This document shows positions 15,418 to 50,136 of a stretch of 64,000 bases of DNA, piece after piece; position 1 is the first letter of the stretch, and each line of letters opens with the position of its first letter. The position numbers and the translations under genes were made by a program. Under the pieces are notes generated by a model. The model was not told where the DNA came from. It saw only the letters and a list, made by a program, of their open reading frames with translations, and searched no databases. This DNA comes from Shigella phage Sf24: the sequence record MF327008, one strand, 5' to 3'.

Positions 15418-18400
15418 ATGGCTACTTTAAAACAAATACAATTTAAAAGAAGCAAAACTGCAGGTCAACGCCCTGCTGCTTCAGTATTAGCCGAAGGTGA
15501 ATTGGCTATAAACTTAAAAGACCGTACTCTTTTTACTAAAGATGACTCGGGAAATATTATTGATTTAAGCATTTCTGCCGGTGGTAACATTAGTGGAAAT
15601 ATTACTCAAAATGGTGATTATTTACAAAACGGCACGTATAATCTTAATGGAAATCAGTTTGTTTATGCAGGAAAGTATATTGAATTCTTGCCAAAAACTG
15701 CTGGAAATGGTGCTTGGGCAAATCAGCACACAAATAAAGCTCCAATTTTCACCGATTTGAGTTCAACTACTTCAACTTCTGAATATCATCCGCTAATTAA
15801 ACAACGTTATAAAGATGGAACGTTTTCATTAGGGACTTTAGTTTCTGAAGGCTCAATGAAGATACACTATATCGATGAAACTGGCACTTCAAAATATTGG
15901 ACTTTCCGACGTGATGGTGGTTTTGTTGTTGATAGTGGTAGTTTAACTGTTACTGCTGGAAACATATCTGCTTCAGGCAATATTAATTCGGCATCAGGGG
16001 TTGTTTCAGCTCCTCAAATTAATACAAAAACCATTGTTTTAGATACAAAAGCATTTGGACAATATGATTCGCAGTCATTAGTTCAGTATGTTTATCCTGG
16101 CACAGGTGAAACAAACGGTATAAACTATCTTCGTAAAGTTCGCGCAAAATCAGGTGGTACAATTTATCATGAAATAGCTTCAGCTCAAACTGGAAAAAGC
16201 GATGAAATTTCGTGGTGGACTGGAAATACAGCCGTTAATAAACAAATGGGTCTTCGTAATGATGGTGCAATGGTATTACGTCGTTCACTTGCTATTGGCA
16301 CAATTACTACAGATGAAAACGTAAATAACTATGGATCTGCTGGAGCAATGGGAGAAAAATACATTGTTCTTGGAGATGCGTCAACTGGACTAGCTTATAA
16401 AAAGACAGGAGTTTATGACTTAGTTGGTAGTGGTTTATCTGTTGCTTCTATCACTCCCGACAGTTTCCGTAGTACGCGTAAAGCAATTTTTGGACGTTCT
16501 GAAGACCAAGGCGGTACATGGCTTCTTCCTGGTCAAAACGCTGCTCTTCTTTCAGTTCGTACAGATATTGATCAAAATAATAACGGTGATGGTCAAACTC
16601 ATATTGGATATAATAGTAACAGCAAGTTTTATCATTATTTTAGAGGCAGAGGCCGAATGGCTGTTGGAATGGCTGAAGGTCTTATTGTTGAGCCTGGAAT
16701 TTTAGATATTAAAACTGGTTCAAATACTGTTTCTATTAGAGCTGATGGCGGAATTTCATCTACTCAGCGTCTTTCATTGCAGAATGGTATATTTTTATCT
16801 TCTGATGGAAATAACAACGGTATATCGTTTAAAGCTTCTAGCAGTATAGATGGAACTAAAACTCTTAATTGGGATGCTGGTACTCGTGCAGGTCAAAACA
16901 AAAATACAGTAATTTTAAAAGCATGGGGAAATTCATTTAATACAAGTGGTGGAACTGATAGACATACTGTATTTGAAGTTTCTGATTCACAAGGATACTA
17001 CTTTTATGCTCAACGTACTACCCCTGCATCCGGTCAAACAGTAGGTCCTATTAATTTTAAATTTAATGGTACTGTAGAAACCGGTCATATCAATGGATTA
17101 GGTAATATTACTTTATCTGGGGCAGTTATAGCAGATTCTGCTAATATTAAAGGACCGCTAAAAATATCTAATGCTAATACAGCTGATGCTTTTAGAATAT
17201 GGAACGCTGAATATGGAGCCATTTTCCGTCGTTCAGAAACATCATTGCATATTATTCCTACACTTAAAGATGCAGGGGAAAATGGTGGAATAAGTAATCT
17301 TCGCCCATTAAGTATTGATCTTTCAAACGGATTTGTGCAAATGCATCATTCTCTTTCTGTGGGGAATACAGTAAGAACGAATGGATTGTTTGCTGTGGAT
17401 ACTTCAGCTGCTCTTGTTGCAATTAACAGTCACTCTCGTGTTAATGCTAATTTCAGAATGCAATTAGGACAATCATCTTATATTGATGCTGAATGTACTG
17501 ACGCTGTGCGCCCTGCTGGAGCCGGTTCTTTTGCTTCGCAAAATAACGAAAACGTCCGTGCCCCATTCTATATGAATATAGATAGAACTGATACAAGCAC
17601 TTATGTTCCTATTGTGAAACAAAGATACGTGCAAAATAATAGTTGCTATTCTATTGGTACTTTAATTAATGGTGGTAACTTTAGAGTTCATTATCATGAA
17701 GGTGGCGATGGTAGTTCTACAGGCGTAGTTATAAAAGATTTAGGATGGGAATTTAATAAAAACGGTGATTTTTATTCTCCTGGTAAATTAGGCGCTGGAA
17801 ATATTAGAATAGGTACTGATGGTAATATCACGGGTGGTTCTGGTAACTTTGCTAACTTGAATACAACTTTAAACCGTAAAGTTAATTCTGGTTTTATTAC
17901 TTATGGAGCAACTGCAGGTTGGTACAAGTTTGCAACAGTAACAATGCCTCAAGCTACATCAACCGTTTCAATTACAGTCACTGGCGGAAATGGATTTAAT
18001 TCTGGATCATTTAATCAGTGCGCAATTTCTGAAATTGTTCTTCGTACAGGAAACAATAATCCTAAAGGATTAAATGCTGTTCTATATAGAAGAGGACTAA
18101 ATTCATTTAGAGATATTGCTTGGGTTAATACATCTGGTGATACATATGACATTTATGTTAATATGGGAACATATGCTAATCAGTTGATATTTAACTATAG
18201 TTCTGTTGATAATGCCACAGTTCAAATTATTGGCGCATTCAGTTCAGCTCAAAATCCTGTTGATGCATTGCCAGAAACATATGTTAAAGGTCAGGTAGCA
18301 GATGTATTGACTAACTTAGTTGATTCTGGAAAAACGAAGCGTTTTGTTGCTGAATCTGAAATAGCTATTAATAATCAAACTGGATTACGTATTACGAGTA

Positions 18401-20097: not shown

Positions 20098-20129
20098 TTT
20101 TTGAATAAATATCCTTAAAAGGAGGGTTT

Positions 20130-20786
20130 ATGGCAGCACCTAGAATATCATTTTCGCCCTCTGATATTCTATTTGGTGTTCTAGATCGCTTGTTCAAAGA
20201 TAACGCTACCGGGAAAGTTCTTGCTTCCCGGGTAGCTGTCGTAATTCTTTTATTTATGATGGCGATTGTTTGGTATAGGGGAGATAGTTTCTTTGAGTAC
20301 TATAAGCAATCAAAGTATGAAACATACAGTGAAATTATTGAAAAGGAAAGAAATGCACGCTTTGAATCTGTCGCCCTGGAACAACTCCAGATAGTTCATA
20401 TATCATCTGAGGCAGACTTTAGTGCGGTGTATTCTTTCCGCCCTAAAAACTTAAACTATTTTGTTGATATTATAGCATACGAAGGAAGATTACCTTCAAC
20501 AATAACTGAAAAATCACTTGGAGGATATCCTGTTGATAAAACTATGGATGAATATATAGTTCATTTAAATGGACGTCATTATTATTCTGACTCAAAATTT
20601 GCTTTTTTACCAACTAAAAAGCCTACTCCCGAAATAAACTACATGTACAGTTGTCCATATTTTAATTTGGATAATATCTATGCTGGAACGATAACCATGT
20701 ACTGGTATAGAAATGATCATATAAGTAATGACCGCCTTGAATCAATATGCGCTCAGGCGGCCAGAATATTAGGAAGGGCTAAATAA
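20130..20786 (+). CDS. t: Holin T, 218 aa
   Basis: ORF track; matches T4 holin T in sequence and length as recalled; single N-terminal TM segment. Confidence 0.9.
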   Translation: MAAPRISFSPSDILFGVLDRLFKDNATGKVLASRVAVVILLFMMAIVWYRGDSFFEYYKQSKYETYSEIIEKERNARFESVALEQLQIVHISSEADFSAVYSFRPKNLNYFVDIIAYEGRLPSTITEKSLGGYPVDKTMDEYIVHLNGRHYYSDSKFAFLPTKKPTPEINYMYSCPYFNLDNIYAGTITMYWYRNDHISNDRLESICAQAARILGRAK

Positions 20787-46682: not shown

Positions 46683-48022
<1,340 letters not shown>

Positions 48023-48039
48023 TATATCATCCTCAGCAA

Positions 48040-48085
48040 TTTGTTTTATAATACCATAACAAGCTGAGAAAGTAAACAAATTTAT
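48040..48085 (-). promoter_or_regulatory. T4-type early promoter driving the nuclease-like ORF and dam
   Basis: Minus strand TTTACT - 17 bp - TATTAT. Confidence 0.55.
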
Positions 48086-48115
48086 GATAAATATTAATTT
48101 AAAGGAGGACGACGC

Positions 48116-48316
48116 ATGGTACAAAAATTAATGGCAATTGTTAATGCCATCAAAGGTAATAAAAAACGTATAGCTTTTACTATTTCTGCTATGGTAGGAA
48201 TTTTACTCTGGAACTTTATTTTATCACCTGTTGCAATTGCACATGGTATTAATATTCCAGTAGTTACTCTTGATACATTCGTAGATTTAGCATTTGCTTT
48301 AGTTGGGTTAATTTAA
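48116..48316 (+). CDS. Small two-TM membrane protein, 66 aa, on opposite strand to all neighbours
   Basis: ORF track; strong RBS AGGAGG 7 nt upstream of the ATG; hydrophobic; 3' end overlaps the gene 61 stop. Confidence 0.35.
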   Translation: MVQKLMAIVNAIKGNKKRIAFTISAMVGILLWNFILSPVAIAHGINIPVVTLDTFVDLAFALVGLI

Positions 48317-49341
48317 ATCTTAGCATATTTAGATAACCTCATTTTAGCCATCAACCCCTGGGCAATATTATTTTTCATATATTCCATAATTTGTTCAGGG
48401 GTTGCACCTTCCTTTCTAATCATATCATTAACATCTTTTGATTTCCAGGGAGATTTATCCCAAAACATAACTCTTTCTCCTGCATCAACTAATTTAGTCA
48501 TTCGTTTGATAGTGTCAGGGTGACGAGGTTCATTATCTAAAACCCACACTCGTCTATCTTTAAATGGAACAACTTCTAGGTCTAATTGACCACCCGTAAT
48601 AGCTATACCATTTTCAATAAAAAGTGAATCTATAGGTCCTTCTAGAACATATACATCACCATCTTTAACTCGTTCAACACCGTAAATTTTTGTTGCCTCA
48701 GGATAAGCTTTGATGGTGATATACTTTTGTGGAGCATCTTTCTTTAATGCACGTCCTTGAAAAGACTCAGCTTTTCCGTTAGCATTATAAATTGGAATAA
48801 CAAGACGAGGCTCAGAAATTTCCTTTTTGTATGTTCCCGGTGCTATGCTATTAACTAATTTAGGCCATTCGGTTGTAAACCAAAGATATTTCCATTTATC
48901 CTTTGGAATACAACGAGCTTTTACATATTTTATAATTGGATGGTCTTCCGCCAGTTTATCTAATCTAACGCATGACGGAAGAGATTTAATTATTTTCTTC
49001 TCAGGCTGTTTAGGAAGTTCTTTAGGTTTTTCTACTGGACGACTTTTACCTTTTTCTTTTCTTATTTCAAAGATATACTCACGATATAAATCAGGTTCAA
49101 ACTCCTTTAAATATATTCCGATTGGTGCATGATAGTTACAGTTATAACAATGAATATTTCCTTCATTATTATCACCATAATACCATCCACGGGCTTTATT
49201 TTGGTCGGTTTTTGAATCTCCACAAACAGGGCATCTAAACCGCAACTTAAAGGTTGAACTATTATTTACTTGTGTAAATTTAGGTAAATGAGCTAATGCA
49301 CGGTATGCAAACTCATTATCAATCCAAGGTATTGATGACAT
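48313..49341 (-). CDS. 61: DNA primase gp61, 342 aa
   Basis: ORF track; zinc ribbon CPVCGD...CYNC; length as T4 gp61. Confidence 0.9.
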   Translation of the reverse strand: MSSIPWIDNEFAYRALAHLPKFTQVNNSSTFKLRFRCPVCGDSKTDQNKARGWYYGDNNEGNIHCYNCNYHAPIGIYLKEFEPDLYREYIFEIRKEKGKSRPVEKPKELPKQPEKKIIKSLPSCVRLDKLAEDHPIIKYVKARCIPKDKWKYLWFTTEWPKLVNSIAPGTYKKEISEPRLVIPIYNANGKAESFQGRALKKDAPQKYITIKAYPEATKIYGVERVKDGDVYVLEGPIDSLFIENGIAITGGQLDLEVVPFKDRRVWVLDNEPRHPDTIKRMTKLVDAGERVMFWDKSPWKSKDVNDMIRKEGATPEQIMEYMKNNIAQGLMAKMRLSKYAKI

Positions 49342-49509: not shown

Positions 49510-50136
49510 TTAACCTCTATTCATAAAAGCATTAAAAATTTGGTCATCAATAGAAACATTTACTTTAGACTGTTTTTCTGATGGTAATTCATATCCACAT
49601 ATCACAATTTTATGATCAATATCAAAATACACAGAAGCAATATGATTAATGATATTTTCAGTGAAGTCTAAATCGACATCAATATCTTTTTGACCAAAGC
49701 CCAAAGGATAAATAATGCGAGTAATTCGATTATCTTTAACAAAGATTCCACCGACATACTCTGTACTGCGTTTAAAGTCTACACGCCGACGAAATGAAAA
49801 ATATTCAGGCTCTTTATGAGCTCGGCTCATAGGACACAACGAATAACTAGAATAAGAGATGTCAAATCCTACGCCTTCAATATGAGCCAAAGTGTCATGA
49901 TTAAACCAATTATAATCGTACGCCAAATCCATTAGATTATAATATGTAAAAGGCACCGGATTAACATCATTAGTCACAAGCATGTAATTAGCAACTGCTA
50001 TAATTTCATTGTTTTTAACGAATACAAACCGTGATTGATGCGAATGACCTGGACCCGCGTTTTCACGATTAATGATATAACACTGGGCACCTTTATATTT
50101 GTATGTATCTTTGCACTTGTGCATTTGATAGAGCAT
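49510..50136 (-). CDS. Hypothetical protein, 208 aa
   Basis: ORF track; T4 61.x position. Confidence 0.45.
   Translation of the reverse strand: MLYQMHKCKDTYKYKGAQCYIINRENAGPGHSHQSRFVFVKNNEIIAVANYMLVTNDVNPVPFTYYNLMDLAYDYNWFNHDTLAHIEGVGFDISYSSYSLCPMSRAHKEPEYFSFRRRVDFKRSTEYVGGIFVKDNRITRIIYPLGFGQKDIDVDLDFTENIINHIASVYFDIDHKIVICGYELPSEKQSKVNVSIDDQIFNAFMNRG

Follow-up and report, generated by a model that had tools for sequence, protein, structure and literature searches.

A conserved plus-strand gene between dam and the primase gene of T-even phages, with a late-type promoter box and a predicted small membrane protein product

In Shigella phage Sf24, an open reading frame (ORF) of 66 codons is read from the plus strand in the midst of genes that lie on the minus strand (soc, soc.1, soc.2, 56, dam, a 186-aa ORF, 61, 61.1, 61.2, sp and 41), which raises the question of whether it is a gene at all and, if so, when it would be expressed and what kind of protein it would encode. 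We analysed this locus within a stretch of 64,000 nucleotides of sequence record MF327008 (the window, in whose coordinates all positions are given unless another genome is named), which by sequence comparison is from a T-even phage: positions 47300-48500 are 99.9% identical to Shigella phage Sf25 and approximately 98% identical to phage T2 and many Tequatrovirus genomes. The features of the locus are collected in Table 1. We consider it highly probable that the ORF is a genuine, self-contained late gene of the Tevenvirinae, comprising a gp55-type promoter with the box GATAAATA, a 17-nt leader and 66 codons arranged tail to tail with gene 61.

Table 1. Positions of the features at and around the 66-aa ORF in the window.
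Feature	Position	Strand	Remarks
186-aa ORF, restriction-endonuclease fold, phrog_8706	47462..48022	-	Divergent from the 66-aa ORF; abuts dam
T4-type early promoter, GTTTAC-N14-atgg-TATTAT	48048..48077	-	Serves the 186-aa ORF; equivalent annotated in phage ASO78A
Late-promoter box GATAAATA (T4 consensus TATAAATA, positions -13 to -6)	48086..48093	+	Identified from sequence
Shine-Dalgarno AGGAGG	48103..48108	+	7-nt spacer ACGACGC, then ATG
CDS of 66-aa protein, dam.1 family, phrog_2024	48116..48316	+	ATG start
Terminator-like hairpin and T-run	48121..48153	-	Within dam.1 codons 3-13; predicted end of gene-61 transcripts
Predicted transmembrane helix, codons 19-42	48170..48241	+	Carries W32-N33 (48209-48214) and P38; hydropathy, AlphaFold, conserved columns
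Primase gene 61, 342 aa	48313..49341	-	Convergent with the 66-aa ORF

Databases already list the product of this ORF as a hypothetical protein, and the architecture of the gene is ordinary T4 biology. Sf24 gp160 is the identical 66-aa protein, and the product is annotated as hypothetical in T2 (where the accompanying text reads 'similar to RB69ORF029w; RB32030w'), in ASO78A and in many other phages; among its homologues, one is labelled 'putative membrane protein' and one UniRef entry is labelled 'Holin'. The name dam.1, which we use here, comes from the phage T4T record HM137666 (protein ADJ39749.1). Dam.1 of T4T, RB69ORF029w, RB32ORF030w and PHROG 2024 represent the same gene, and the protein of Sf24 has 95-97% identity to the T4/T4T protein; relative to T4T, position and strand between dam/56 and primase gene 61 are the same, and the proteins differ by one to three conservative substitutions. 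We found no mention of Dam.1 or RB69ORF029w in the literature searched, and nothing relevant to dam.1 in the literature on T4 ribosome profiling and small proteins. The T4 RefSeq record NC_000866 has a 309-bp gap between dam and gene 61 that carries no feature of any kind. The dam.1 ORF (17738-17938, plus strand), its Shine-Dalgarno sequence and the GATAAATA box are nonetheless all intact in this record though unannotated, and the encoded protein differs from that of the window by three conservative substitutions.

Conservation of the reading frame in related genomes was part of the test that the original prediction had set for this ORF, and the frame proved to be conserved well beyond the closest relatives of Sf24. 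Searching with the 66-aa protein by tblastn returned 695 phage records, 684 of which had at least 80% query coverage; approximately 500 matched at 87% identity or more and 194 at below 60%, and among the matches listed all adjoin a primase gene. The phrog_2024 profile matched the protein over its full length (E = 8.3e-31, residues 2-66 against positions 1-65 of 65) and was also matched by 20/20 diverse relatives. Values of dN/dS for dam.1 were 0.1-0.6 in all informative Tequatrovirus pairs, and approximately 0.12-0.24 in the most diverged of them. As no other coding frame overlaps the region, we attribute this conservation to selection on the peptide. Relatives that share just 18-30% identity are 57-74 aa long and retain the basic N-terminus together with W32, N33, P38 and P48, residues that are nearly invariant across the family. 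The location on the plus strand between gene 56/dam and the primase gene is likewise kept down to approximately 20-25% identity, and in the most distant metagenomic relatives dam.1 is alone on the plus strand in the interval from gene 56 to the primase gene.

The family is narrow: a profile search with word seeds, followed by an exhaustive profile search of 1.84 billion representatives, identified 14 clusters only. It comprises two paralogous subtypes, of which type A (M.KL..L..AIKGNKKR...) is found in Tequatrovirus, Mosigvirus and Gaprivervirus, and type B (MGxxFYQIWKL...) in Kanagawavirus, Marfavirus and other Klebsiella phages, Pectobacterium/Salmonella phages, Dhakavirus and Gaprivervirus. 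The two types occur in tandem on the plus strand in VR26 (L021 1295-1701), where A precedes B, and in ESCO47 (L007 1799-2192), where B precedes A; in both tandems a late-type box is found before the first copy only. In the T4 mutant clone T4_583L (MZ375356.1), a 2-bp deletion shifts the frame of dam.1 at approximately codon 22, and a 4-bp deletion is present in the spacer between its Shine-Dalgarno sequence and ATG. These deletions represent either tolerated loss of the gene or sequencing error, and if the frameshift is not an error, it hints that dam.1 is dispensable in the laboratory; a search for a paper on MZ375356 returned none.

The layout and translation signals described in the original prediction were all present in the window. 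The ORF is divergent from the nuclease-like 186-aa ORF, for which the ATG at 48022 is the true start, and converges on gene 61 with an overlap of 4 nt, in which TTAA at 48313-48316 provides the stop codon on both strands; the same 4-nt overlap of stops with the primase gene is found in Mosigvirus, Gaprivervirus, Marfavirus and the lineage L027. The near-perfect Shine-Dalgarno sequence and its 7-nt spacing are as had been claimed, GGAGG is kept upstream of the dam.1 homologues of related phages, and folding of the predicted 5' end of the RNA left both the Shine-Dalgarno sequence and the AUG unpaired; on the plus strand, the hairpin at the 5' end of the ORF does not occlude either of them. With four plus-strand ORFs of at least 60 aa between 45.5 and 51 kb, the length of dam.1 alone is within chance. 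Its signals are far rarer: AGGAGG-N4-9-ATG occurs at two sites only on both strands of the 64 kb, namely at the holin gene t and at the 66-aa ORF, and the late-promoter motif ATAAATA occurs 13 times only on both strands. In combination, the signals at the 66-aa ORF are beyond chance. The holin gene t (20104-20786, plus strand), at which the other AGGAGG-N4-9-ATG site lies, is itself preceded by a variant late box, AATAAATA.

We then considered how dam.1 would be transcribed. The box GATAAATA matches seven of the eight positions of TATAAATA and is located at -30 from the ATG; as noted in the original prediction it differs from the consensus by a single mismatch, which lies at -13 (G for T). Within the late box, which extends from -13 to -6, T(-13) shows little conservation among T4-like phages (PMC1524935), A(-13) is found at 9 of 50 T4 late promoters and other sites carry single deviations (PMC2988020), and the bases that gp55 flips into pockets are -12, -9 and -8, with -13 not among them (PMC7892883). 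The one-mismatch box is credible because its mismatch falls at this poorly conserved, unflipped position, although G(-13) is a rarer variant than A(-13). Extracting the 60-70 nt upstream of each dam.1 homologue, we found that in 10 of 11 lineages NATAAATA precedes the ATG by 16-41 nt, amid flanks that could not be aligned. The sole exception is L027, in which ACTAAATA replaces NATAAATA; the (a/g)CTAAATA form of the late promoter has been reported in Aeromonas phage Aeh1 (PMC2988020). The base at -13 is G in the window, T2, T4, L011, L017 and L019, A in Mosigvirus and L012-L014, C in CJ20, VR26 and ESCO47, and T in Q7622, L010, PWKp16 and L026.

The probability of finding ATAAATA by chance in a 31-nt stretch of the Sf24 genome is 0.003. 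Of 152 ATG-initiated ORFs of at least 50 aa in the window, five have this motif 10-46 nt upstream: dam.1 and the genes for gp34 (tail fibre), gp36, holin T and Soc, the latter four being classical late genes. Like the T4 late genes soc, t, 34 and 36, which are served by TATAAATA and gp55/gp33/gp45, dam.1 has ATAAATA at the usual distance from its ATG, an A/T-rich stretch downstream of the box, a strong Shine-Dalgarno sequence and a polarity opposite to that of early and middle genes; unlike canonical T4 late genes, it has G rather than T at -13 and stands alone inside an early/middle cluster. In T4, all early and middle transcripts run in the same direction as the genes around them, the opposite polarity being confined to late transcripts (PMC2988020); a T4 dRNA-seq preprint counts 150 phage transcription start sites (TSSs), 22 of them antisense (bioRxiv 10.1101/2024.04.04.588121). 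We found no convincing early or middle promoter on the plus strand near dam.1. Taken together, these features point to late expression of dam.1 from its own late promoter, with a predicted start near 48099, a 17-nt leader and, in T4 NC_000866, a counterpart start near 17722. A second copy of GATAAATA lies at 49707-49714 on the plus strand, antisense within a 208-aa ORF (49510-50136) at the position of gene 61.2; it has no plausible ORF downstream; a 34-aa ORF starts immediately after the box.

Comparison of the upstream DNA shows that the box, the Shine-Dalgarno sequence and the ORF are kept together as one cassette. In Tequatrovirus, three unrelated upstream haplotypes all meet the conserved block at precisely the same point, [G/A]ATAAATAT: a T2-type with the 186-aa ORF and its early promoter, a T4-type in which the 186-aa ORF is deleted, and an L012-type in which gene 56 is adjacent. 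In T4 and L015 the early promoter and most of the 186-aa ORF are lost by a deletion whose end is the late box, T4 keeping a C-terminal remnant of the ORF, and in L012, Mosigvirus and other genera the upstream DNA and genes are different; the cassette is intact in each. The idea that the nuclease-like ORF and dam.1 form one unit was rejected because their occurrence differs, the full T2-type stretch with the nuclease ORF being present in 144 of 502 matching Tequatrovirus records and dam.1 being near-universal.

These comparisons also bear on the original suggestion that the start region of the ORF shares DNA with the early promoter firing in the opposite direction, making expression of the two mutually exclusive or temporally switched. 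The early promoter (GTTTAC at 48077-48072, N14, atgg, and TATTAT ending at 48048) is a good one of the T4 type. Its -35 hexamer comes within 8 bp of the late box and 38 bp of the dam.1 ATG, and it overlaps neither the Shine-Dalgarno sequence nor the start codon, so that the two promoters are back to back with cores that do not overlap. Any overlap with the late box and the 5' untranslated region would be limited to the A/T-rich stretch upstream of the early promoter. As the early promoter is missing from T4 and other lineages while the cassette is kept, a dedicated switch is unsupported, and the temporal pattern would simply be the phage-wide change from sigma70-type to gp55 promoters.

At the 3' end, three lineages in which dam.1 has no overlap with the stop codon of a convergent gene, L019, CJ20 (L005) and L017, carry a plus-strand hairpin and downstream T-run after the dam.1 stop, which is strong in L019 (CTCTAGAGC-TTCG-GCTCTAGAG, then T6) and CJ20 and weaker in L017. 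These predicted hairpins fit a monocistronic unit. In the window there is no canonical plus-strand terminator downstream of dam.1, and therefore the late transcript would probably extend for some distance into gene 61 in antisense orientation. The minus-strand terminator-like hairpin within dam.1 (stem TTGATGGCATTAACAATTGCCATTAA plus TTTTTGT) is annotated as a rho-independent terminator in phage ASO78A, and the I8L codon difference between the window and T4 leaves its stem paired; were it used, the gene-61 mRNA is predicted to have a 3'UTR of approximately 190 nt that is antisense to the whole of dam.1. This hairpin is confined to Tequatrovirus, and hence we do not regard it as part of the core design of the family.

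The 3' end of gene 61 contains a further inverted repeat of approximately 19 bp at 48351-48404 (CAACCCCTGGGCAA...TTGTTCAGGGGTTG), which corresponds to the codons for gp61 residues ATPEQ...AQGL, lies in a region with a fold z-score of -4.4 against shuffled sequences, and recurs in Mosigvirus, Kanagawavirus and Gaprivervirus but is absent from the most distant relatives. As a terminator for dam.1 this hairpin was rejected: it is also present in CJ20, which has its own dam.1 terminator and a gap of 119 nt, and its stabilities on the plus and minus strands show no consistent difference.

Turning to the protein, hydropathy, charge bias and modelling all agree with the original reading of dam.1 as a small membrane-protein gene. 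Residues 19-42 and 46-66 are hydrophobic (mean Kyte-Doolittle values of 2.01 and 1.73, respectively), residues 1-18 contain five K/R and no D/E, and the C-terminal part contains two D and no K/R; the 66-aa protein thus shows both the hydrophobic helix, 19 residues or longer, and the positive-inside bias that are expected of a bitopic protein. An AlphaFold model built with the family alignment (pLDDT 82) has helices at residues 2-11, 15-42 (pLDDT approximately 90) and 52-63. The two hydrophobic segments that had been proposed are both present in the Sf24 sequence, but the second does not hold up across the family, where the C-terminal helix is amphipathic and often polar (e.g. LEHIMSIISAFGG and IEKVVSFLMLGL). 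For this reason a single-pass arrangement is more likely than a double-pass one, and dam.1 probably encodes a small, single-pass membrane protein with a cytoplasmic N-terminus; a helical hairpin in which residues 46-66 form a second transmembrane segment is possible for the A-type protein of Sf24. A conserved Asn and Pro within a transmembrane helix usually indicate helix-helix association or a kink.

The sequence of events that we envisage is as follows. Early in infection dam.1 would be silent, as the plus strand offers no convincing early or middle promoter. After the onset of replication, RNA polymerase with gp55/gp33/gp45 would initiate near 48099, and the resulting mRNA would be translated efficiently into a small inner-membrane protein, whose basic N-terminus (five K/R) would remain in the cytoplasm, whose helix 19-42 would span the membrane and whose acidic, amphipathic C-terminal helix would be periplasmic. 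The W-N-x4-P motif suggests that the helix may associate with another, be it a second copy of itself, the tandem paralogue or a different membrane protein, and the protein's site of action would then be the envelope, at a late stage of infection. Late timing, membrane insertion, topology and mode of action are all what we infer from comparison and modelling.

Several other readings place the function of this DNA in the nucleic acid rather than in the peptide. One could regard the ORF as a chance frame within promoter DNA and the 3'UTR and terminator of gene 61, conserved through those signals; its length is unexceptional for an A+T-rich genome, a minus-strand terminator-like hairpin lies inside it and T4 RefSeq has no annotation for it. 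However, the amino-acid motif is kept to approximately 20% identity, where the DNA can no longer be aligned, dN/dS is below 1, the Shine-Dalgarno sequence is conserved, query coverage reaches at least 80% in almost all tblastn records, and the ORF is distributed more widely than the Tequatrovirus-only hairpin. The comparative data thus strongly disfavour this reading, which we find barely credible. Control through DNA shared with the divergent early promoter derives some appeal from the late box lying 8 bp upstream of the early -35 hexamer, in the region expected for an UP-like element of that promoter, yet with cores that do not overlap and a cassette kept in all genomes in which the early promoter and its ORF have been lost (T4, L015) or the upstream DNA differs (L012, Mosigvirus and others), mutually exclusive firing appears very unlikely. 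We judged scarcely better a cis-antisense or convergent-transcription device in which the peptide is secondary, whether late plus-strand transcription into gene 61 lowers primase mRNA or, conversely, early gene-61 read-through to the terminator at 48128-48153 masks dam.1 mRNA; taken jointly, the two forms are distinctly improbable. The convergent layout with its overlapping stops, the window's lack of a canonical plus-strand terminator downstream and a predicted gene-61 3'UTR antisense to the entire ORF would all suit such a device. Against it, the protein is clearly under selection, phages other than Tequatrovirus lack the terminator inside the ORF, and the plus-strand hairpin and T-run of L019, L005 and L017 precede or overlap the next convergent gene; since these hairpins follow the ORF, antisense read-through is not conserved.

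Other readings accept the peptide but assign it a different fate or function. Cleavage of residues 1-42 as a signal peptide would free a hydrophobic, acidic peptide of 24 residues, and SPVAIA/HG does resemble a cleavage site (P at -5, A-I-A at -3 to -1) that follows a basic n-region and a hydrophobic core. This is most improbable given that the core, at approximately 24 residues, is long by the standards of cleaved signals and contains a nearly invariant W-N, that -1 is F in some members (P0091, P0092), and that the AlphaFold model has one continuous helix. A holin, pinholin or antiholin-like lysis protein is also unlikely, if not to that degree. Dam.1 is small, predicted to be embedded in the membrane and probably late, one member bears the name 'Holin' in UniRef, AGGAGG-N4-9-ATG is common only to holin t and dam.1, and the late box varies at -13 in both. 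Yet the 'Holin' name is a single record with no accompanying evidence, the best Pfam match (GTA_holin_3TM, E = 0.081, in 2 of 20 members) is far below the cut-off, and there are no NCBIfam matches to holins. Moreover, the C-terminus (...FALVGLI) lacks K/R and hence the charged cytoplasmic tail of a holin, the charge cluster being N-terminal, and dam.1 lies outside any lysis cluster, the canonical holin T being encoded at 20130-20786. More broadly, no homology of dam.1 to a characterised family was found in Pfam, NCBIfam or a PDB sequence profile search, and Foldseek searches against PDB and BFVD returned noise or the dam.1 family itself only.

Among known systems, dam.1 resembles a type I toxin-antitoxin pair in being a small hydrophobic peptide whose mRNA would be fully complementary to the predicted gene-61 3'UTR; unlike such a pair, its sole toxin match is to Ldr_toxin (E = 0.1, in 1 of 20 members) and the overlap is not conserved outside Tequatrovirus, so that neither toxin homology nor a conserved antisense overlap was found. 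Imm, Sp and the antiholin RI are small T4 envelope proteins encoded by short ORFs and carrying an N-terminal membrane segment, and Imm and Sp are made early. By analogy dam.1, also short and with an N-terminal membrane segment, may plausibly reside at the inner membrane or in the periplasm, although it has no detectable sequence or profile similarity to these proteins. An accessory role in the timing of lysis or in protection of the envelope is a weak guess. A more specific proposal, in which the W-N-x4-P helix of a late envelope factor binds part of the machinery of lysis, lysis inhibition or superinfection (for example T, RI, Imm or a host inner-membrane protein) and the complete antisense overlap with the gene-61 3'UTR sharpens timing in Tequatrovirus, is speculative, and we would put little weight on it.

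The importance of dam.1 as a self-contained late gene may go little beyond annotation hygiene, and any modulation of lysis or superinfection exclusion by it would add only modestly to a system already studied in depth. Nevertheless, NC_000866 omits a gene that is conserved in T4-like enterobacterial phages of at least six genera, and studies based on that record, including proteomics, CRISPRi screens and transcriptomics, would miss it. With its predicted late expression and membrane location, dam.1 would be among the few late membrane-directed products of T4 without an assigned role. The comparative case for a dedicated late promoter, which supports and extends the original reading of a membrane-protein gene behind a late-type box, yields a prediction that is cheap to test, namely a plus-strand TSS near T4 position 17722.
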